Below, piece after piece: positions 6,683 through 31,067 of a stretch of 64,000 bases of DNA; within the stretch, counting starts at the first letter, position 1, and each line of letters begins with the position of its first letter. The stretch is from a virus (Duplodnaviria > Caudoviricetes): positions 658-64,657 of the IMG/VR virus record IMGVR_UViG_3300010163_000022. The stretch is one strand, 5' to 3'. Both the position numbers and the translations under genes were made by a program. The notes beneath the pieces are model-generated. The model saw nothing but the letters and a program-made list of their open reading frames with translations. It ran no database searches and had not been told where the DNA came from.

Positions 6683-7208
6683 GACTGTTATGGATGAAAA
6701 TTATCAAGATTATAAAAAGCCTTCTATGTTAATAGCTACAGCTTTTTGTGATTGGAAATGTTGTATAGAAGGAGAATTTGATATGGAAATTTGTCAAAAT
6801 TATCATTTAGCTAAAGGTAAAATAGTTGATATAAGTAATGAAAAATTATTTAATAGATATAAAGCTAATAAATTAACTTCTGCAATTATATTAGGTGGAT
6901 TAGAGCCTTTTATGCAATTTAAAGAAATTTATGATTTTATAAAGTATGTTAGAGATAATAATTGTAATGATGATATTATTATTTATACAGGTTATAATTA
7001 TGATGAAATTCATAAAAAAATAGAAATTTTAAGAAGTTATAAAAATTTAATTGTAAAATTTGGAAGATATAAAATAAACGGAAGAAAAAAATATGATGAA
7101 ATGCTTGGCGTAGAATTAGTTTCTGAAAATCAATATGCTGCCAAAATTTTAACGTGGGAGGAGATAAAATCAATTGCAAAATCAAATAAAGAAAAAAGAA
7201 ATAGATGA
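6672..7208 (+). CDS. nrdG: Class III RNR activase (radical SAM)
   Basis: CDWKC..CQN cluster motif, LGGLEPF, YTGY, KFGRY; overlaps nrdD. Confidence 0.9.
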   Translation: MRIRTVMDENYQDYKKPSMLIATAFCDWKCCIEGEFDMEICQNYHLAKGKIVDISNEKLFNRYKANKLTSAIILGGLEPFMQFKEIYDFIKYVRDNNCNDDIIIYTGYNYDEIHKKIEILRSYKNLIVKFGRYKINGRKKYDEMLGVELVSENQYAAKILTWEEIKSIAKSNKEKRNR

Positions 7209-7443
7209 TAAAATTAAAAAATTATCTATTGATATAGAATTAAATATAAAAGAAGTTATATCAAAAAATTTAAATAAAAAAATTGATGTTTCTGATTTTT
7301 TGTTAGCTTATTTATTAGCTGGAGCAGATATTTTTTATACGATAAATCCTTTAAAAGATAAAAAAAATCAAACACTACTTAATTTTATTTTATTAATAAA
7401 TATAATAGCAAAATCAATTGAAGTTAATAAAAAGGAAGACTAA
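7174..7443 (+). CDS. Hypothetical protein
   Basis: TTG start with GGAGGAG RBS; 89 aa. Confidence 0.65.
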   Translation: MQNQIKKKEIDDKIKKLSIDIELNIKEVISKNLNKKIDVSDFLLAYLLAGADIFYTINPLKDKKNQTLLNFILLINIIAKSIEVNKKED

Positions 7444-7445
7444 AT

Positions 7446-7664
7446 ATGAATTTTTTAAAAGTTATATTTAATTTTATAAATAAATTAGTAAATTTTGTAT
7501 TTAATTTATTTTTTATGCTTTTACCATTTATTTTTATTTCAATAGTATTAAAAACAAGTTTTATTTATCTTTTTAATGTTAATTTAAATTTTTATGGATT
7601 AGTATCTTTATTAATAGCTTTATTTTTATATTTATATATATTAATAATAGTAATAAATAAATAA
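7446..7664 (+). CDS. Small membrane protein (about 2 TM segments)
   Basis: Two hydrophobic stretches; AAGGAAG RBS. Confidence 0.7.
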   Translation: MNFLKVIFNFINKLVNFVFNLFFMLLPFIFISIVLKTSFIYLFNVNLNFYGLVSLLIALFLYLYILIIVINK

Positions 7665-19198: not shown

Positions 19199-19220
19199 TA
19201 AATTTTAATATATTATCAAT

Positions 19221-19246
19221 AAATAGCCTAATTTTTTAGGCTATTT
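19221..19246 (+). terminator. Intrinsic terminator after the capsid gene
   Basis: AAATAGCCTAA-TTTT-TTAGGCTATTT. Confidence 0.8.
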
Positions 19247-20565: not shown

Positions 20566-20964
20566 ATGGCAACTAAAATTTTTGAATTACAAAAAAGTAT
20601 TTTTGAAAGATTAAATAATGATGAAATTTTAAAAAAAATGAATTGCAATGGTATTTTTGACTATGTTCCTGAAGACTTCGATCCACCATATATTTGTTTA
20701 GGTCAAATTGTGTCAAATAGCGATGATACAAAAACAGATGTTAATGAAAAAGTCATTTTTTATATTGAAATTTGGAGTGAAGAAAAAGGAAAGAAAAATA
20801 CTTTAGAATTAATGATTAGAATAGAAGAACTTTTAGAAGAATTTTTAACTTTAGAAACAGGTAATATTATAAAACAAAAAATAAAAAGTAGAGAAGTTAT
20901 TGAACAAGATTATAAATTGTTTCATGGAAGTTTAGAAATTGAATTTTATATTGAATGGATATAA
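20566..20964 (+). CDS. Tail terminator (DUF3168-like)
   Basis: IFDYVPEDFDPPYICLG, EIWSEEKG. Confidence 0.85.
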   Translation: MATKIFELQKSIFERLNNDEILKKMNCNGIFDYVPEDFDPPYICLGQIVSNSDDTKTDVNEKVIFYIEIWSEEKGKKNTLELMIRIEELLEEFLTLETGNIIKQKIKSREVIEQDYKLFHGSLEIEFYIEWI

Positions 20965-20994
20965 AATATAAATTTTAAATAGGAGGATAAAAAA

Positions 20995-21675
20995 ATGGGA
21001 AATAAAATTACTGGAATGAAAGTAAAATTATATATAATAGATAATGAAACAGGTAAAATTTTAGCAGGACAACGTAATGCAACTTTATCTCGTTCTGCTG
21101 ATACAATAGATGCAACTTCTAAAGATACTGAAGGATTTTGGAAAGAGTCTTTGCAAGGATTTAAAGAATGGTCTATAGATGCTGATGGTTGTTATGTAAC
21201 AGATGACGAGGCATATAGTATTTTAGAGTCTGCATTTTTAAATTCAGATAATGTAGATGTTTATTTAGAAATGCCTTCTGGAGAAAAAATGAAAGGTAAT
21301 TGTAGTATATCAGACTTTAGTTTAGAAGCTCCTTATGATGATTTAGTAACTTATAGTTTATCATTGCAAGGAAATGGCGCTTTAATAAAAATTCCAGCCG
21401 AACCGCCTAAAGCAGTTACTGTAACTTTAGTAAGTGATAGTGTTACAGCAAATAGTTTTATATTGGAATTCGATCAAAAAGTTGAAGGATTAACTCAGTA
21501 TGATATAAAAGTTAATTCCGGAGTAATTACATCTATAGAAGATGTAGTAGAAGAAGGTAAATTTAAAACTAAAGTTAATATGACAATGAAAGAAAATGTT
21601 AAATATACTGCAATAATTACTAAATTAGGTTATACGTTTAATAAAGTTGAAAATATTGAGTATGTAGTTGTTTGA
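20995..21675 (+). CDS. Major tail protein, TP901-1 family, with a C-terminal Ig-like domain
   Basis: LAGQRNATL.RSADTIDATSKD..GFWKESLQGFKEWSIDADG; APYDDLVTYSLSLQGNG; ends at a TGA in frame with the next ORF. Confidence 0.93.
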   Translation: MGNKITGMKVKLYIIDNETGKILAGQRNATLSRSADTIDATSKDTEGFWKESLQGFKEWSIDADGCYVTDDEAYSILESAFLNSDNVDVYLEMPSGEKMKGNCSISDFSLEAPYDDLVTYSLSLQGNGALIKIPAEPPKAVTVTLVSDSVTANSFILEFDQKVEGLTQYDIKVNSGVITSIEDVVEEGKFKTKVNMTMKENVKYTAIITKLGYTFNKVENIEYVVV

Positions 21676-24600
21676 AGTGCTCTTGGAACTCCAGTAATTA
21701 GTGTAGTGGCCCCTGTGAAAGGGGTTACTCCATCATCAACAGCTACAACAACTGACGAAAATTATACTATAACTTCTTTAGATTGGTTAAATTATGATGG
21801 AACAGAAGCAACTTTAATTAATAATAAATTTAAACCTTCAACAAAATATAAAGCAAAAATAATATGTTTAGCTGATGATGGTTATAGATGGACAGGTACC
21901 ACAACAGCAATTATTGCTAATTCTTCTGAAGTTTCAATTAATATAAACGATGATATAAATAAAAAAGATGCAATTTTATTAATTATAGCTTCTTATGATG
22001 CAACCGAAGATGAAATACCGATAATTGTTCCAGCTGAAAAGCTTGATGTAAATATTAGTCCAGGTAATGCTGTAGGGGCTATTAAAGTAGAAGTTACTAA
22101 TATTATTGGTTCAACAAATAGTTTAAAATATACTATTACAGATAATGAAATAACAGATGTAAACGAAGGAGATATTTTAGAAAATGGATTAAATTTTGTA
22201 AATAATCAGGATATTAATATTAATGAAAATCAATATATTAATATTTTTGAAATTTTTAACGAAAATAATCAAGATAAAATTATAAAATATTGTTCTTCGC
22301 AAGTAAATGCTTCTGATATTAAAAAGCAAGAATTTTTAATAAATTGGGCTATTACTGATACTAATTGTAGTATAAAAGCTAAAGTAAATAATGAAGAAAT
22401 TCAAGGAAATTCAGCAAATTTAGAAATAGGAACTCAAGTAACATTTATTGCTACTTTAAATGAAGGATATAAAATAAAAAATTGGATAGTTAATGGTCAA
22501 AATTACTATTATAATAATAATTTAAAATCTGCACAAGAAAATATTCAAGTATTAGAAAATTCTATAATTATAACAATAACTGAAAATATTAATATTGATT
22601 TAGTAACAGAATTAATAATAAATCAATATAATTTATCATTAATTCAACCAGAAAATGGCATTATTTCAGTAAAAAATTCATTAAATGAAATAATAAAGCC
22701 TCCTTGTTTAATAGATGAAGGAACAAATTTAATATTTACTTTAGTTCCAAATGAAAATTATGAATTAAGTAATTGGATAGTTAATGATAAAGAAGTTCAA
22801 GCCGAAGATGATAAAACTTTAAAATTATCTATATCTTTAGATACTATAGTAACAGCAAATATTCAAGAAATTGTTTTAAAAACTGTTTCTATAGGAAATC
22901 AAAGTAATGAATTAGTACAAGGAACAGGAGCAAATGCTACTTTTGAAATAATAACAAATAATATTGATAATGGAATAACTCCAACTGTTATATGGATAGA
23001 TACTCAGCCAAATAATTTAACTTATAATATTACAAATATTAATAATAATTCTTCTACTTTAACAATAGAAACAACAAACACAACAAATTATGGTGAAACA
23101 AGATTTAAAATTAGTGCAGATGGAATTGAGTCCAATGAAGTAATTTTAAAAATAAAACAATTAATAATTAAAAAAGTTAATTTAAATATAATTCAACCAA
23201 CTAATGGTGGAACTATAAATGGCACTCAGGGAGAGGTAGAAGTAGGTAGTATTCAAAATTATAATATTAATTTATTAGAAGGTTATAATATTAATGCATG
23301 GAATATTACTTCTAATGGAACAAATATTGATAATAATTATATTAATTTATCTGACGATAAAAAATCATTATCTTTAATTGTACCAGACGTGCCAAATGAT
23401 ATTAATATTACAGCTTTATTAAAAGAAGTTGTTACATTACAAGTTGTACAACCTGATAATGGTACGATTTCAATTATTAATCCTGATAATATAGATGTAA
23501 ATCAAATATCTATTATAGATAAAAATACCGAAGTTACTTTTAAAGTTGCATTAAATGATATAAATAAAGATTATACTATAGAATGGTTAGTAAATGGTAG
23601 TAAAATTGAAGGAGAAAATTTAGATACTTTTATTCTAGAAATATCTGAAAATAGTATTATAACTTCGAATTTAAATATAATAGAAAAATATACTATATCT
23701 TGGTTAGTTGGTCAAAATGGTAGTTTAGAAGTATTTAATAGTAATGGAGAAAAAGTTATAAGTAATTCAAAATTTATAAAAAATGAAGAATTGCTTTTTG
23801 TAGCAGCTCCTAATGAAAATTATAATGTTATATGGCCAAGTTCTTTAGTTGTATTACCAGAAGACAAAAATCAAGCTACTTTAGTAGTTACACAAGATTT
23901 AGATTTAGGAGAAATATCTTTTGAACAACAATCTATTTCTAATATAACTTTAGAAGATGGTTCTTTAGGAGAATTAGATGCAGTAAATAATAAAATTACT
24001 GGATTAGATACTAAAAAATATTATTCTATTCGACAAACAAGTAATAATACTTCAAAATATTTAAAATTAAATGGAACGTATAGTGAAGAATATGATTTTA
24101 TAGGTCCAGTATCAGAAGTATCTTTGCCAAGTGATATTCAAGCTAGTTATTATGTTCAAGAAGATACTTTGTCTTTAAAGAATTTTAAATTAGCTAGTGA
24201 AGCATATTCTAATATTGAGCTTTCTTGGACAAAACCAAGTTCTAATCCATTAACTAATTATCAACCTTATATTGTTCAAAATGGAATAGAAACAGAATTA
24301 ACTGAAACTAATTTTTCTGATGATTTACCTATAAAATTAGAAAGTAGTTTATATTCTGGTTCTAGAAAAATGGTTATTAAAAATATTGATAAATTAGTAT
24401 TTAATCAAGAAGTTCTTATTAGATTAAAATTAATAGGTTGCGATGATTTACAAAATTGCAAAAAAGTTTATGACTATGATTATAAAAAGGCAACTTCTTA
24501 TATTTATTATAGTACAACTGAACCAATACAAGGAGAAAGTCCTATGTCTGGATTAAGTGCTGTTCATTCTTTACAACCAGAATTATATGAAATAGATCCA

Positions 24601-25140
24601 GACTCAGTAGTATATAAAAAAGTTTCAGATAATTCTATAGTTAATACAGATGATGTATTTTTAGCAAATACAGATTATTATATAGAAGGAAATATTATTG
24701 CAACAGAAAACTGTAATTTTAGAATTGGAGGAAATAGTACATCTCCTTATAATTCTACAGGATTTTCAACTTATATTACTAGTACTGCAGCAACAGATTT
24801 AAAAACAACAACTTTTAAACAAAAATTTTGTAAAACTGGTGATTTAGGTGGAATTACTGATTTAATGGCAGAACAAAGTAAAACAATTAGCACAGATTAT
24901 ATTTTAACTTGGACAATTCCAAATAAAGAAAATGCTAAATCTATTCAATTAAAAGATGATTATTATAATGAAAATTATAAAAAGCTTAGAAATACTTTGT
25001 CTTTAGATAGTGATACTGTAACAGTTTATGTTAATACTGGAGGCAGTGTAAGTCTTAGATTAATAGTAACTTATAATGATGAAAGTACTAAAAAAAGTAA
25101 TATAGTAAGTTTTACACATATACCAGAATTAAAAAATTAA
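21676..25140 (+). CDS. Multi-Ig/InlB-B-repeat-like tail decoration region; probably the readthrough extension of the major tail protein
   Basis: Same frame as MTP, open immediately after the TGA, no RBS before GTG 21706; repeated (N/E)GYxIxxWxVNG motifs; FN3-like LSWTKP and LTWTIP. Confidence 0.75.
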   Translation, partial: SALGTPVISVVAPVKGVTPSSTATTTDENYTITSLDWLNYDGTEATLINNKFKPSTKYKAKIICLADDGYRWTGTTTAIIANSSEVSININDDINKKDAILLIIASYDATEDEIPIIVPAEKLDVNISPGNAVGAIKVEVTNIIGSTNSLKYTITDNEITDVNEGDILENGLNFVNNQDININENQYINIFEIFNENNQDKIIKYCSSQVNASDIKKQEFLINWAITDTNCSIKAKVNNEEIQGNSANLEIGTQVTFIATLNEGYKIKNWIVNGQNYYYNNNLKSAQENIQVLENSIIITITENINIDLVTELIINQYNLSLIQPENGIISVKNSLNEIIKPPCLIDEGTNLIFTLVPNENYELSNWIVNDKEVQAEDDKTLKLSISLDTIVTANIQEIVLKTVSIGNQSNELVQGTGANATFEIITNNIDNGITPTVIWIDTQPNNLTYNITNINNNSSTLTIETTNTTNYGETRFKISADGIESNEVILKIKQLIIKKVNLNIIQPTNGGTINGTQGEVEVGSIQNYNINLLEGYNINAWNITSNGTNIDNNYINLSDDKKSLSLIVPDVPNDINITALLKEVVTLQVVQPDNGTISIINPDNIDVNQISIIDKNTEVTFKVALNDINKDYTIEWLVNGSKIEGENLDTFILEISENSIITSNLNIIEKYTISWLVGQNGSLEVFNSNGEKVISNSKFIKNEELLFVAAPNENYNVIWPSSLVVLPEDKNQATLVVTQDLDLGEISFEQQSISNITLEDGSLGELDAVNNKITGLDTKKYYSIRQTSNNTSKYLKLNGTYSEEYDFIGPVSEVSLPSDIQASYYVQEDTLSLKNFKLASEAYSNIELSWTKPSSNPLTNYQPYIVQNGIETELTETNFSDDLPIKLESSLYSGSRKMVIKNIDKLVFNQEVLIRLKLIGCDDLQNCKKVYDYDYKKATSYIYYSTTEPIQGESPMSGLSAVHSLQPELYEIDPDSVVYKKVSDNSIVNTDDVFLANTDYYIEGNIIATENCNFRIGGNSTSPYNSTGFSTYITSTAATDLKTTTFKQKFCKTGDLGGITDLMAEQSKTISTDYILTWTIPNKENAKSIQLKDDYYNENYKKLRNTLSLDSDTVTVYVNTGGSVSLRLIVTYNDESTKKSNIVSFTHIPELKN
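21701..21733 (+). promoter_or_regulatory. GC-rich RNA hairpin downstream of the MTP UGA
   Basis: GTGTAGTGGCCCCT-GTGAA-AGGGGTTACTCCAT, about 13 pairs including G-U, 1 mismatch; buries GTG 21706. Confidence 0.5.
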
Positions 25141-25158: not shown

Positions 25159-25488
25159 ATGCAACCAGTGATTATTAAAACAGAAAAAAATGTTTATAAA
25201 TTTAAAATAAAATATTCTACATTATGTGATTTAAAAGTTTTAGGCGTAGATTTAATGACAGATGCTGGAACTAAAAAATTAATGGAAGACCCATCACAAT
25301 TAAGATTAGTTTTTTGGAAAGGTCTTGAGTCAGGAGAAGAGAAAGCTTATTCTAAAGAACAAGCATTTGATATTTTTGATGAAATAATGGAAGATTTGGG
25401 TCCAGAAGAATTTTCTGAAATTATTCCAAAATCTTTAGCAATTAAAACTAAGCCAAAAGAAGAAGAAACAGAAACACCCACAAAATAA
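25159..25488 (+). CDS. Tail assembly chaperone (lambda G-like)
   Basis: Position between the tail tube and tape measure genes; LRLVFWKGL; AAGGAG RBS. Confidence 0.8.
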   Translation: MQPVIIKTEKNVYKFKIKYSTLCDLKVLGVDLMTDAGTKKLMEDPSQLRLVFWKGLESGEEKAYSKEQAFDIFDEIMEDLGPEEFSEIIPKSLAIKTKPKEEETETPTK

Positions 25489-25789
25489 ATTTGAATTTTG
25501 GGATTATATTGACCAATGTTTAAATAGAGCAATAATTGATTTAAAATTAACTAAAAAAGAATTTTTTGATTTAACTCCGTGGGAATATACTAACTTAATT
25601 TATTATTATGATGAAAAACAAGAAAATAACTATACTATTCTTAGAAATGTAGTTTATAATGCTATTTCTAATTTATTTAGAAAAAAAGGCGAAAATGAAA
25701 TAAAGCTTTTTGAAGATAAAAATAAAAAAGAAAAAGATGTAAATCAAATATTGAAAGAAAGAGATGAGCTATTTAATTTTTTAAATTAA
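25439..25789 (+). CDS. Tail chaperone frameshift extension (lambda T-like), not in the ORF track
   Basis: Open +1 frame with no start codon: ...FEFWDYIDQCLNRAIIDLKLTKKEFFDLTPWEY...LFNFLN*; LxLxxxEFxxLTPxE motif. Confidence 0.8.
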   Translation, partial: QLKLSQKKKKQKHPQNKFEFWDYIDQCLNRAIIDLKLTKKEFFDLTPWEYTNLIYYYDEKQENNYTILRNVVYNAISNLFRKKGENEIKLFEDKNKKEKDVNQILKERDELFNFLN

Positions 25790-25826: not shown

Positions 25827-28800
25827 ATGTCTCTTATTGTTAAAATTGGTGCAGATGATAGAGAGTTTCAAAGAGCTATGTCAAGACTTACTTCTGATAC
25901 TAATAATGTAGGTAATAGTTTAATTAAAGTTGGAAAAAAATTAACTACAGCATTAACGGTTCCTATAGCAGGTCTTGGAGCTGGAGTTGTAAAATTAGGA
26001 TCAGAATTTGAAGCAGCAATGTCGCGACTTGGAGCAACAACAAGTGCAACATCTGAAACTTTAGAAAAATTAAATAAAGTTGCAATGAATATGGGAGCTA
26101 CAACTCAATATTCTGCTACAGAAAGTGCTCTTGCTATGAATGAATTAGCAAAAGCGGGATTTACAGCAGAGCAAGCTATGGATGCCATAGGTGGTACTTT
26201 AAGTATGGCAGCAGTAGAGCAAATGGATTTAGCTGAAGCTGCTCAAATAACTTCAAAAATTATTAATGGAATGCAAATGGAAGCTACAGAAGCTTCTCAC
26301 GTAGCTGATGTTTTAAGTAAAACTTCTAATGAAACTGCAACAAGTATTTCTTCTTTGGGTGCAGCATTCGCTCCTGTAGCAAGTTTTGCTTCTCAATTAG
26401 GTGTTGAATTTGAAGATTTAGCTGCAGCTATAGGTATATCAGCAAATGCTGGTAATGATGGAGCTGTTGCAGGAGAAAAATTAATGGCAGTTCTTAGGAA
26501 TATTGCAGCGCCTAGCGCTAAAGCAAAAAAAATGCAAAATGCATTAAATATGGAATTTTTTAACTCAGAAGGAGTAATGAAATCATTACCTGAACTTATA
26601 GATGAAATTAAAACTAAGACTAATGGTATGACAGATGCTCAAAAAGCAGCAGCTCTAAAAATATCTTTTGGCACCGAGTCATTGGCTGTATTATTACCTT
26701 TATTAAAAGAAGGCGGTCAAGCAATATCTGACTATAGTGCAGAATTAAGTAAATCAAATGGCTATGCAGATACAGCAAAAGAAAAAATAAATGATAATTT
26801 AATTGGTTCATTAAAATTATTTGTTTCTGCTTTAGAAACTGCAGCAATTTCTTTATATAATAATATAGGACCTGCAATAAAAGCAGTAGTTGATGCAGTA
26901 ACTAGTATTATTTCAGCTTTTGCACAATTAAGTCCAAGTATTCAACAAAATATAATTTTAATTGCTGGATTATTAGCTGCGTGGGGGCCTTTAGTTTCTA
27001 TAATAGGAACTGCAGTTAAAGCTTTTGGTGCAATTAAGGCAGCAATAACTATGGCTAAAGCAGCAACTACAGCATTTGGAGCAGTTTCAGCTTTATTAGG
27101 CGGACCTATTAATTTAATAGCAGCAGCTATTTTAGCTTTAATTGCTGTAATAGTTTTATTAGTAAAAAACTGGGATAAAGTTAAAGAAGTTACTATTAAT
27201 TGTTGGAATTCAATTAAAGAATTTATGAGTCCAATTTGCGAAGGAATTGCAAATATTGTTAGTTCAGCTTGGAATAAAATAAAAGAAATCACAGAAAAAG
27301 TTTGGAATTGGATTAAAAATTTTCTTAGCAAATGGGGAACTACTATCTTAGCTTTTATAGTTAGTCCTATAGCAGGAATAGTTTTAGTTATTTCTAAAAA
27401 TTGGAATAAAATTAAAGAAGTCACTGAGAAAATTTGGACTAGTATTAAAGATTTTTTATCAAAAATATTAAATACAATTTTAGTTCCTTTTAAAACTGTA
27501 TTTGAAGCTATAAAAAATATTGTAGAAAAAGCTTGGAATGGAATAAAAAATGTAATTTCAACTATTATAAATGCAATAGTTTCTTTTATAAAAGGAAAAA
27601 TTAATGGTATTAAAATTCTTATACAAGGCGCAATGGATTTTATAAAAAATATTTTTGAAACAGGATTTAATGCAGTTAAAATAACTATAGAAACTATTTG
27701 GAATAATATTAAAACTATTTTTCAAACAGGAGTTAATATATTAAAAAATATTATAAAGATTTTTACTTCAGCTTTTAAAGGTGATTGGCAAGGTGTTAAA
27801 CAAGCAGTACTAGCAATTATTAATTCAATTAAAAACCTATTTTCTGTTTTAGTAGGTAACGCAGTATCCTGGGGAAAGAATTTAATGCAAGGATTTTTAA
27901 ATGGATTATCAGGAACAATGAAAATTGTTATAAATACCGTTAAAAATTTTGTAATGAATATTATTAATACTTTTAGAAATATTTTAAAAATTCATTCTCC
28001 TTCTGAAGTTACAACAGAAATAGGTGAATATACAGGTGAAGGAATTGAAAAAGGATTAATAAAATCCAAAGAAAAAGCTAAAGAAGCTGCAGAAGAACTT
28101 GCCAAAGGAGTAGAAGAAAGCTTAGATATTAATACAAGTAAATTTGAAAAAATGTGTGATGCTTTAACTGAAGCAATAAAAAAATCTTATGAAGAGCAAA
28201 AAGATATACAATCAAAAAGTTTAGAAGCTCAATTAAAAGCTGAAGAAAAAGCATCTGATGAAAGAATAAAAATTTATGATAAAGAGTACAATGAAAAATT
28301 AAAATTACTAGATGAAGAAGCTTATAAAAAACAACAATCAATTCAAGCTCAAATAGATGAAATAGAAGCACAAACAGAAGCTGAAGAAAAAGCTTTAGAA
28401 GAACAAGAATATCAACAAAAATTAATTGATTTAAAAAAACAAATATCTACAGCAAAATCTGAAGCTGCAACTAATAAAGCTAAAGCTGAAAATGCTGAAG
28501 AACAGAAAAAAATTGAAAAAGAATTAGCCGAAGAAATAGCTAAAATTAATAAAGATATTAAAGAAACAATCGCTGATAGAGAAAGAAAATTATTATTAGA
28601 ACAAAGAAATGAACAAAAAGAAGCATTAAAAGCTCAGATAGATGAAATAAAAGACTCAATAGATAAAAAGAAAGAAATAATGAAAGAAGAATATGATAAA
28701 TTTAAAGAAAATGAAAATAATAAATTAGAAACTTTTAAAGAAGAAAATAATAAACAAAAAGAAGAATTAGAAAAGCATTATGAAGAAATTTTAAATGATG

Positions 28801-31067
28801 ATAATATTAATGCTGAAGCTAGAAAAATGATTTTAGAAGGCAATCAAGATGAAATATTAAAATTATTAAATGATTATAATCCAAAATGGCAAGACGCAGG
28901 ACAATCATTAGCGGATAGTTTAATAAATGGTCTAAATTCTGAAAAACAAACAGTAGGAGAAGCAGTCGAAGAAGCTTTAGGTTTAAAAGAAATAATACCT
29001 GAACAAAAAGCACAATTAGCAGAATTAAATGAACAAATAAAATTAATGGAAGAAGAAATTGAATACCTAAATGAATTAAAAAGTGAAGCAGATAATAAAA
29101 AATCTTCATCTAAATCTAAAATGAGTGTCGATGATAAAGCTTTATCTCAAATAGGTTTAACTTCTGAAGATATTGATGCAATGCAAGCAAATGCAATAAA
29201 TTTAGATGATAATGAAGAAAATAATGAAAACAATAACTTAGAAAATTCTGATCAGCAAGATAATGATTTATTTAGCGATTTAAATACTGATAATCTTACT
29301 GATTTTATTAATAAAAATGAAGAAATAGTAGCTGAAACAAAAAATATTTGGTCTTCTATGGGAGATTGGTTTAAAAATACATGGAATAGTATTTGTTCTT
29401 CATGCCAAAATATCTGGGATAATATTAAAAATTATTTTAATTCTTTATGGATAGATATATGTAATAATTGTAATAATGCTTGGAATGATTTTAAACAAAG
29501 TTGTATAAATTATTGGAATAATATTGCTAATTCATGTAAAAATATTTGGAATAGTATTACTACTTATTTTAGTGATTTATGGGATACTATTGTTATTTAT
29601 TTTATGGCTGCATGGGATAATATTAAAAATAATCTTTCTAATGTATGGGATAGTATAATTCAAACTTGTAAATCTTTATGGGAACCTATAGAACAAACTT
29701 TCTCAGAAATATGGAATGAAATATCTACATCAGCTATTAGTGCTTGGAATGAAATAAAATCAACTTTACTTTCTATATGGAATAGCATTGTTAATTCTGT
29801 AAATTCAATTTTTAGTAAAGCAACATCAATTTTAACAAATATATGGACTATAGCTAAAAATGTAGTAGTTTCTATATGGAATTATATTACTCAATATTTA
29901 AAAGCTATATGGGATGCTTTAGTAATAACATGCTCCCCTATTTTTGAAAAAATATCAAAAATAATTACAGATATTTGGACAAAAATAAAAAATATAACTT
30001 TAAATATATGGGAAAGTATAAAATCTGCTTTATCTAATTTATGGAATGAAATAATAAACATTATAAATAATATTTGGTCACCAATAAGTTCTTTTTTTAA
30101 TAAATTATGGACTGAAGTATCTCAATCTTTTATTAATATTTGGAATAATATTAAAAATACTATACAAAAAATCTGGGAAGAAATAAAAACTTTAGCTAAT
30201 AATATTTGGACATCAATCAAAAAGTTTTTTGAAACAACTTTAGCTTCAATTACTTCTACTTTCAAAAAAAATTGGAATGATATAAAAACTTGGATAACAA
30301 ATATTTTAAATTCTATAAAAAATACATTTTTGAATATATGGGAAAATATAAAATCTAATATTATAAATATCTGGACAACAATAAAATTAACTGCTATAGA
30401 TATTTGGACATCAATAAAAAATACTTTAATACAATTAGTAACTACTATTAAAATAACAATAGTAAATTTATTTACAAATTTAAAATCAGTATCAATAAAT
30501 ATTTTTAATAATTTAAAATCTACAATTACTAATACTTGGACTAATTTTAAAAATTTAGTAGTAAATACTGTAACTTCTATGGTTTCTAAAATAGAAAATG
30601 CTTTTAATAGATTAAAAACTACTGTTAGTAATATTTGGGAAGGTATAAAATCAAATATAAAAACAGTAATTAATGGAATTATAGGAATTATTAATAAATT
30701 TATAGATGGATTTAATATGCCTGCTGAGGCTTTAAACTCTATTCCAGGAGTAAATGCTCCTATAATTAGCCATATTCCTATGTTAGCTAAAGGTGGAAGT
30801 TTATATGGAAATGGTAATGCTATTGTTGGGGAAGCAGGACCAGAATTATTAACAAAAAGTGGTTCTAATTTAAAAGTAACTCCTTTGTCAGGAAGAGACA
30901 AATCACTATCAAGTCAAGGATTATTAAATAATAATTCAATAAATGGAGTTATTGAAGTTCCTGTAACTTTAGATAGTAAAATTATAGCAAAAGTTATTGC
31001 TCCTATGATTGATGTTAAAATTAAACAATCAGCAGATCAAAAATCAAGAGCAAAAGGAAGGTGGTAA
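25827..31067 (+). CDS. Tape measure protein, TP901 family
   Basis: EFEAAMSRLGA..GATTQYSATESALAM.ELAKAG; Trp-periodic repeats; coiled coil; IPMLAKGG..IVGEAGPELL C-terminus. Confidence 0.95.
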   Translation: MSLIVKIGADDREFQRAMSRLTSDTNNVGNSLIKVGKKLTTALTVPIAGLGAGVVKLGSEFEAAMSRLGATTSATSETLEKLNKVAMNMGATTQYSATESALAMNELAKAGFTAEQAMDAIGGTLSMAAVEQMDLAEAAQITSKIINGMQMEATEASHVADVLSKTSNETATSISSLGAAFAPVASFASQLGVEFEDLAAAIGISANAGNDGAVAGEKLMAVLRNIAAPSAKAKKMQNALNMEFFNSEGVMKSLPELIDEIKTKTNGMTDAQKAAALKISFGTESLAVLLPLLKEGGQAISDYSAELSKSNGYADTAKEKINDNLIGSLKLFVSALETAAISLYNNIGPAIKAVVDAVTSIISAFAQLSPSIQQNIILIAGLLAAWGPLVSIIGTAVKAFGAIKAAITMAKAATTAFGAVSALLGGPINLIAAAILALIAVIVLLVKNWDKVKEVTINCWNSIKEFMSPICEGIANIVSSAWNKIKEITEKVWNWIKNFLSKWGTTILAFIVSPIAGIVLVISKNWNKIKEVTEKIWTSIKDFLSKILNTILVPFKTVFEAIKNIVEKAWNGIKNVISTIINAIVSFIKGKINGIKILIQGAMDFIKNIFETGFNAVKITIETIWNNIKTIFQTGVNILKNIIKIFTSAFKGDWQGVKQAVLAIINSIKNLFSVLVGNAVSWGKNLMQGFLNGLSGTMKIVINTVKNFVMNIINTFRNILKIHSPSEVTTEIGEYTGEGIEKGLIKSKEKAKEAAEELAKGVEESLDINTSKFEKMCDALTEAIKKSYEEQKDIQSKSLEAQLKAEEKASDERIKIYDKEYNEKLKLLDEEAYKKQQSIQAQIDEIEAQTEAEEKALEEQEYQQKLIDLKKQISTAKSEAATNKAKAENAEEQKKIEKELAEEIAKINKDIKETIADRERKLLLEQRNEQKEALKAQIDEIKDSIDKKKEIMKEEYDKFKENENNKLETFKEENNKQKEELEKHYEEILNDDNINAEARKMILEGNQDEILKLLNDYNPKWQDAGQSLADSLINGLNSEKQTVGEAVEEALGLKEIIPEQKAQLAELNEQIKLMEEEIEYLNELKSEADNKKSSSKSKMSVDDKALSQIGLTSEDIDAMQANAINLDDNEENNENNNLENSDQQDNDLFSDLNTDNLTDFINKNEEIVAETKNIWSSMGDWFKNTWNSICSSCQNIWDNIKNYFNSLWIDICNNCNNAWNDFKQSCINYWNNIANSCKNIWNSITTYFSDLWDTIVIYFMAAWDNIKNNLSNVWDSIIQTCKSLWEPIEQTFSEIWNEISTSAISAWNEIKSTLLSIWNSIVNSVNSIFSKATSILTNIWTIAKNVVVSIWNYITQYLKAIWDALVITCSPIFEKISKIITDIWTKIKNITLNIWESIKSALSNLWNEIINIINNIWSPISSFFNKLWTEVSQSFINIWNNIKNTIQKIWEEIKTLANNIWTSIKKFFETTLASITSTFKKNWNDIKTWITNILNSIKNTFLNIWENIKSNIINIWTTIKLTAIDIWTSIKNTLIQLVTTIKITIVNLFTNLKSVSINIFNNLKSTITNTWTNFKNLVVNTVTSMVSKIENAFNRLKTTVSNIWEGIKSNIKTVINGIIGIINKFIDGFNMPAEALNSIPGVNAPIISHIPMLAKGGSLYGNGNAIVGEAGPELLTKSGSNLKVTPLSGRDKSLSSQGLLNNNSINGVIEVPVTLDSKIIAKVIAPMIDVKIKQSADQKSRAKGRW

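Follow-up and report, generated by a model that had tools for sequence, protein, structure and literature searches.

Does translation of a phage major tail protein gene always end at its UGA stop codon, or do some ribosomes continue into the very large open reading frame (ORF) that lies in the same frame behind it? The question is raised by IMG/VR virus record IMGVR_UViG_3300010163_000022 (Duplodnaviria; Caudoviricetes), from which we analysed positions 658 to 64,657. This stretch of 64,000 nucleotides (nt), hereafter called the window, is nearly the whole of the 64.7-kb record, which has inverted terminal repeats and comes from an uncultured phage that is very AT-rich (22% GC). At 20995-25140 of the window, the gene for the tail-tube subunit, the major tail protein, is followed across a single UGA by 1154 open codons that have no start signal of their own and whose product aligns through the stop with multi-domain proteins. 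The reading that we favour, and regard as somewhat probable, is that low-level readthrough at UGA-A would yield a 153-kDa adhesin anchored in the tail tube. The features of the locus, in window coordinates, are these:

20981-20986, + strand: Shine-Dalgarno (SD) site AGGAGG of the major tail protein gene (duplex energy −10.2 kcal/mol)
20995-21675, + strand: major tail protein gene, starting at ATG 20995, encoding 226 amino acids (aa) and ending GTT GTT TGA
20995-21405, + strand: tail-tube domain of the TP901-1 family, residues 1-137 (Pfam PF06199, PHROG 1407 and identity to Geobacillus phage GR1)
21406-21672, + strand: extra C-terminal beta-sandwich domain (immunoglobulin-like, Ig-like), residues 138-226, present on every tube subunit
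21673-21675, + strand: proposed leaky stop UGA-A, an in-frame UGA and then A
21676-21705, + strand: ten codons (SALGTPVISV) from the stop up to the first GTG, which encode a linker between domains and the first beta-strand of extension domain 1
21701-21733, + strand: GC-rich hairpin of 13 base pairs with loop GUGAA, containing both candidate GTG starts
21676-25137, + strand: 1154-codon extension of beta-sandwich modules (open frame, Pfam matches, homologues)
25138-25140, + strand: TAA stop of the extension, with the ATG of the chaperone gene 18 nt further on

The open frame behind the tube gene

The 226-aa tube protein matched the PF06199 profile (TP901-1 family phage major tail protein) at residues 11-130, with E = 2e-30 and 105.8 bits against a curated cut-off of 23.8. 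It also matched the major tail protein family PHROG 1407 and was 70-80% identical to proteins annotated as TP901-1 family. Its gene sits between the tail terminator and G/GT chaperone genes, in synteny with GR1. For residues 138-226, we obtained weak structural matches to Ig-like domains (Z 4.2-4.9), and cellular multi-domain proteins also aligned there.

An initial annotation, made from the letters alone, had described the UGA as in frame, with the same frame open right behind it. This was borne out: codon AGT 21676 resumes the tube-gene frame after TGA 21673-21675, and 1154 codons follow without a stop until TAA 25138-25140. Past the stops of the other genes, the open run covered 0-31 codons, except for two runs of 131 and 172 codons, which are presumably the next gene in the same frame. 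TGA is a rare stop in this phage, closing 4 out of 61 genes, and TGA 21673 is the only in-frame TGA within any gene of the window. When TGA was read as a sense codon, just one ORF pair in the window merged (20995-25140); the three other TGA stops each close a gene in the ordinary way, one as part of a TGA-TAA tandem. A search for a phage-encoded suppressor tRNA returned no tRNA gene, either from the window or from the record's first 900 bases. Because only this pair merges, the other three TGA codons are real ends and no tRNA gene was found, genome-wide recoding of TGA (code 4 or 25) was ruled out and the feature is local. The tandem stop, TGA TAA (7206-7211), ends the gene at 6783-7208; a back-up stop of this kind would fit a host with a leaky TGA.

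The tube gene, which is highly expressed, uses this rare stop in a UGA-A context. UGA is the leakiest of the stop codons, misread by tRNA-Trp in Escherichia coli and Bacillus subtilis especially when A comes next, the context reported as most liable to this misreading, and highly expressed genes favour UAA (PMC5289835).

The short tube protein has a mass of 25 kDa and the extension alone 128 kDa, so that the two fused would come to 153 kDa (1381 aa). The extension matched Pfam families Flg_new_2 (InlB B-repeat-like) and SbsC_C. Its initial label, "Ig-repeat," was roughly right: the extension is a chain of beta-sandwiches, with one unnamed Ig-like domain, one SbsC_C-like domain, several that are InlB B-repeat-like, and terminal FN3-like leads. 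For the extension's distal end there was no sequence match in PDB, and ESM Atlas gave weak FN3 and Ig_J leads only.

Domain continuity and initiation signals

To follow the protein across the stop, we used as query the residues encoded by 21388-22650 with tryptophan (W) at the stop codon, which places the W at residue 96 and GTG 21706 at residue 107, and searched 1.8 billion representative proteins. This gave 260 domain-level homologues, mostly long repetitive proteins. The best stretch began at query residues 93-108 in 15 matches, and 14 out of these 15 began before residue 107. Single stretches crossed the stop in P0034 (query residues 30-183), P0035 (81-185), P0116 (78-175) and P0134 (85-213). 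In BLASTP alignments, the end of the extra domain, the W and the SALGTPVISVVAPVKGVTP stretch fell on inter-domain junctions of multi-domain proteins, and one alignment with P0034 had no gap through the junction. The tandem repeat units of the homologues start with "…I.V.APV.G..P"; the counterpart here, VISVVAP, begins before the GTG, and alignment A1 shows no variation at the proline of APV (residue 109).

An AlphaFold2 model made with alignment A1 had a pLDDT of 93-97 in the downstream domain, with strands at residues 97-99 and 103-106 and a mean pLDDT of 93 for residues 101-110. The best structural matches, to domain I of the S-layer protein SlpA (Z 5.5-5.6, residues 98-208), begin at residues 98-99. 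Taking the alignments together with the model and the structural matches, we conclude that the ten codons ahead of the first GTG account for a linker and for the strand with which the domain opens. The initial annotation had placed the beginning of the domain motif upstream of the GTG, and both the homologue alignments and the predicted strands agree with it.

We compared start signals by the energy of the duplex with the anti-SD sequence and re-called starts where a better SD lay a few codons on. The median energy over first-listed gene starts was −7.9 kcal/mol. After start correction, about 55 out of 59 gene starts had a recognisable SD; most of the seeming exceptions had been called at the wrong start and had a good SD slightly further downstream, within a few codons. 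By contrast with nearly all of these genes, and as the initial annotation had also stated, the only two canonical starts in the first 60 codons of the large frame, GTG 21706 and GTG 21715, have no SD (0.4 to −3.3 kcal/mol). A 50-nt segment centred on either GTG folded at −18.3 to −18.6 kcal/mol, compared with −2.2 ± 2.2 kcal/mol (minimum −9.2) for 58 gene starts by the same measure, which makes the GTG region 7.4 standard deviations more stable. GTG 21706 is base-paired with a probability of 0.998, and GTG 21715 is unpaired in a 5-nt loop. Like Q-beta A1, the locus has a long in-frame coding sequence directly behind a putatively leaky stop, here UGA-A, without its own initiation signal.

The hairpin that holds both GTG codons (21701-21733), first noted as GC-rich and lying 25 nt past the UGA, had a folding energy of −18.6 kcal/mol (z = −3.9 against shuffles) and was more stable than any other 45-nt fold on the + strand across the 64-kb window. 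A stretch of seven codons in it includes GTG, GCC, GTG and GGG, each of which accounts for only 2-3% of its own synonymous family here, and 18 out of 5000 synonymous recodings of the hairpin peptide folded as well. The hairpin looks to be under selection; its role may be to adjust readthrough, to prevent internal initiation, or to act in mRNA stability or processing. It matched no Rfam family at E <= 10. We rejected it as an intrinsic terminator, given that it has no U-run and was absent from a terminator scan, and as a repeated element, given its single occurrence in the window. The minimum-free-energy fold of the region further pairs the 9 nt before the UGA (21664-21672) with 21738-21746, forming a multi-branch structure at 21664-21746 (−30.8 kcal/mol, z = −2.8) within which lie a small stem (21683-21694) and the main hairpin.

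Relatives, insertion history and neighbouring genes

The tube-protein relatives, about 150 in number (30 loci from IMG/VR plus the best 119 database proteins), are all 127-170 aa long and without extra domains, and the next gene in most of the IMG/VR loci encodes a chaperone of about 105-115 aa. The nearest cultured relative is GR1 (OK896991), which has the same gene order from terminase to tape measure. Its tube protein, of 136 aa, is 79% identical over residues 1-131, and its chaperone and capsid protein are 69% and 57% identical, respectively. In GR1, unlike in the phage studied here, the chaperone gene comes directly after the tube gene, with no Ig-like domain, in-frame stop or extension. 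That GR1 and the other relatives are short at this point, with flanks 79% and 69% identical to GR1, indicates from sequence comparison that a short tube gene of the TP901-1 type received the Ig-like domain, the UGA and the extension (21406-25140) in frame as a single insertion of 3.7 kb. The right end of the insertion lies just before the ribosome-binding site of the chaperone gene, and its GC content matches that of the rest of the phage.

No relative of the extension was found by tblastn against 50,697 phage records or by scans of IMG/VR, metagenome and GTDB genome contigs, and a word-indexed search of 5.8 billion proteins returned the extension itself only. A search for longer, fused homologues of the tube protein found none. 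P0002, the best HMMER match, has only an SbsC_C-type repeat in common with the extension; among the tube-protein relatives, an apparent match of L002 past its stop was spurious; and L033, a relative found via its capsid, has an unrelated 216-aa tube protein and no extension.

Two side observations concern the lineage. An 82.5-kb IMG/VR phage (L003), whose tube protein is 76% identical, carries between its tube and chaperone genes a 224-aa lysine-rich ORF (6910-7584) that resembles a homing endonuclease, which suggests that the same junction is an insertion hot spot in the lineage. Identity to GR1 and Bacillaceae prophages is 57-79% for the tube, chaperone and capsid proteins, yet the phage has only 22% GC, pointing to strong compositional drift or to a very AT-rich Firmicute host.

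The locus belongs to a siphovirus structural module at 14-39 kb that comprises terminase, portal, protease, capsid protein, connectors, tail terminator, major tail protein, the very large ORF, chaperone and tape measure. The genes on either side of the tube gene and its extension are the following:

20566-20964: tail terminator, upstream of the major tail protein gene
25159-25488, + strand: tail assembly chaperone G, 69% identical to the GR1 tail assembly protein (PHROG 7902/2115), marking the right edge of the insertion
25827-31067, + strand: tape measure protein, 1746 aa (Pfam PF10145 and tape-measure PHROGs)

The T part of the chaperone (open frame 25439-25789) lies in the +1 frame relative to G, where −1 is canonical; G ends …ACA CCC ACA AAA TAA, and a +1 slip on CCC_A (25477-25480) would join …PQNKFEFWDY…. 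Directly after the major capsid gene, a terminator-like hairpin at 19218-19246 (ATAGCCTAA / TTAGGCTAT, then T-rich) forms the second most stable + strand fold.

Readthrough, rival explanations and known systems

The initial annotation had interpreted the locus as stop-codon readthrough giving a minor 1381-aa form of the tube protein, and our analysis supports this as the best reading: alignments to homologues continue across the stop, both candidate starts lie buried in the hairpin, the insertion is in frame and the stop is UGA-A. In the mechanism that we propose, most ribosomes would end at UGA 21673 and release the 25-kDa tube protein, made of a TP901-1-type tube domain and one Ig-like domain. 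A small share would decode the UGA with a near-cognate tRNA, most likely tRNA-Trp, melt the hairpin and translate the 1154 further codons, giving the 153-kDa isoform. The N-terminal part of this isoform would polymerise into the tube, and about a dozen beta-sandwich modules would stick out from it as a long adhesin-like arm, presumably one that binds the host surface. From the 1746-aa tape measure protein, we infer a tail of about 260 nm with a few hundred tube subunits; if readthrough ran at a few percent, as in Q-beta, each tail would be expected to bear on the order of 4-20 arms. A 1381-aa tube protein made constitutively, on several hundred subunits, seems implausible, and the stop is therefore likely to be functional. 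A bolder version, which we regard as doubtful, is that the UGA serves specifically for recoding and that the rare-codon hairpin, an undescribed kind of bacterial 3' readthrough stimulator, sets how efficiently it does so, giving a controlled number of adhesin arms (about 50 nm and 128 kDa each) per tube. In that case, programmed stop-codon readthrough would be demonstrated for the first time in a tailed double-stranded DNA phage, with the largest tube-protein isoform known to us.

Several points weigh against readthrough. By chance alone, an adjacent ORF lies in frame in 1 case in 3, and the chance of ten open codons after a stop is about 0.4; the case thus rests on the features taken together rather than on frame by itself. 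Both the extension and the additional Ig-like domain are singletons, with no relative in which conservation of the stop shows. UGA may be less leaky in the host of this phage than in E. coli and B. subtilis. An Ig-like domain sometimes folds without its edge strand. Finally, the first base of the hairpin lies 25 nt past the stop, too far for a ribosome decoding the UGA to touch it, and known recoding stimulators typically lie 5-9 nt from the stop; at this distance, a mechanistic tie between hairpin and readthrough cannot yet be made.

The most serious rival is a separate gene for a 1144-aa protein, expressed by termination-reinitiation or 70S scanning 31-40 nt downstream at GTG 21706 or GTG 21715, or by rare SD-less initiation at the loop GTG, with the free protein attached in some other way. 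Gene callers do start P0001 at GTG 21706, GTG 21715 is fully unpaired in the hairpin loop, gene 19443 also seems to be coupled without an SD, and low expression would fit a low-copy fibre. We nevertheless consider a separate gene unlikely. A spacing of 31-40 nt is long for coupling, and GTG 21706 is paired inside the strongest hairpin of the window. A start at 21706 would lose the first strand of domain 1, and one at 21715 the invariant proline as well, while the product would have an Ig-like module at its very start and lack any recognisable N-terminal domain for anchoring in the virion. The insertion, moreover, is fused in frame to the tube gene and brought no ribosome-binding site of its own. 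Less probable still, in our judgement, is that the TGA is a recent nonsense mutation, an assembled minority variant or a base-call error, in a gene that is otherwise continuous or whose extension is dead but undecayed. TGA is one substitution away from the common codons TTA, TCA, GGA and AGA, the locus is known from a single metagenomic assembly with no relatives to compare, and similar extensions are dispensable in Bacillus phage SPP1 (PMC8718954). An indel error is excluded because the frame is the same on either side of the TGA. A substitution would have to be reconciled with 1154 codons that are intact at 22% GC, where about 9% of random codons are stops, so that any loss of function would be very recent; with the selected rare-codon hairpin just past the stop, which suggests a specially handled site; and with a constitutive 1381-aa tube protein, which is unprecedented and would probably block tube assembly.

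Other kinds of recoding at the UGA appear very improbable. The initial annotation had offered as its alternative a hop like that of T4 gene 60, from GTT 21670 to GTT 21724. Here the take-off and landing codons match, the stop comes right after take-off and a G-rich stretch lies ahead of the landing codon; however, GTT is the commonest valine codon, making the match trivial, and the hairpin lies 25 nt beyond the take-off site, which is not the T4 gene 60 arrangement. The hop is disfavoured by the 17 codons that it would delete, which encode the first strand and the invariant proline of a confidently modelled domain. A SECIS-like hairpin directing selenocysteine at the UGA would account for the stable stem-loop, with an apical loop starting in GU, downstream of the stop. 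Bacterial SECIS elements, however, lie immediately 3' of the UGA (PMC7026636), and here the stem begins 25 nt away and, as given above, matches no Rfam family; nor would selenocysteine have an apparent role in a linker.

To our knowledge, tailed phages so far add arms of Ig-like or carbohydrate-binding modules to the tube by frameshifting only, and we found no report and no established case of stop-codon readthrough in tailed double-stranded DNA phages. In MTP-TpeX of the lactococcal 936 group (Skunavirus), a tube domain is followed by a constitutive Ig-like adhesin, a recoding site at the tube stop and a longer host-binding extension that has no start of its own and has the chaperone genes immediately behind it; the long isoform is in the minority and decorates the tail of the lactococcal phage (PMC4759559, PMC6669499). 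The locus studied here has the same layout, with a putative recoding site and then an ORF of Ig-like modules 3' of the tube gene and before the chaperone gene. The TpeX proteins differ in arising by a +1 frameshift at a CCC.UAG shifty stop that adds about 200 residues (470-530 aa in total), whereas here the extension is in the zero frame behind UGA, GTT and not CCC precedes the stop, 1154 residues are added (1381 aa) and there is no sequence similarity. SPP1 gp17.1* is likewise a C-terminally extended tube protein of a Firmicute siphophage, produced by recoding, with an added Ig/FN3 fold; the extended form is built into the tube beside the short form (3:1), and Listeria phages PSA, A118 and A500 have tail-shaft long forms of the same kind (PMC8718954, PMC5009743). 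It differs in using a +1 frameshift and in adding a single FN3 domain right after the tube domain. The proposed decoding is that of Q-beta (Qubevirus) A1, in which a major structural protein ends in a leaky UGA, decoded as Trp by about 5% of ribosomes, and a minority extended subunit enters the virion (PMC6526423, PMC7026636); Q-beta, however, is a single-stranded RNA phage, and its 196-aa extension is on the capsid and not on a tail tube.

If the readthrough proposed here is real, a tube subunit would be able to anchor a 128-kDa appendage. Arms anchored in this way could affect host range. Annotators would gain a reason to look behind structural genes for in-frame "orphan" ORFs without start signals, and UGA-A with its hairpin forms a compact natural cassette for studying readthrough levels in Firmicutes. 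Chance decides whether mobile Ig-like domains arrive in frame or out of it, according to the 2016 review by Atkins (PMC5009743), and a block that landed in frame and is limited by a leaky stop would fit that picture. The recoding route that a phage uses would then depend on the frame in which an acquired block of domains happens to land, as the same review suggests for frameshifting versus ordinary in-frame decoding of Ig-like extensions (PMC5009743).

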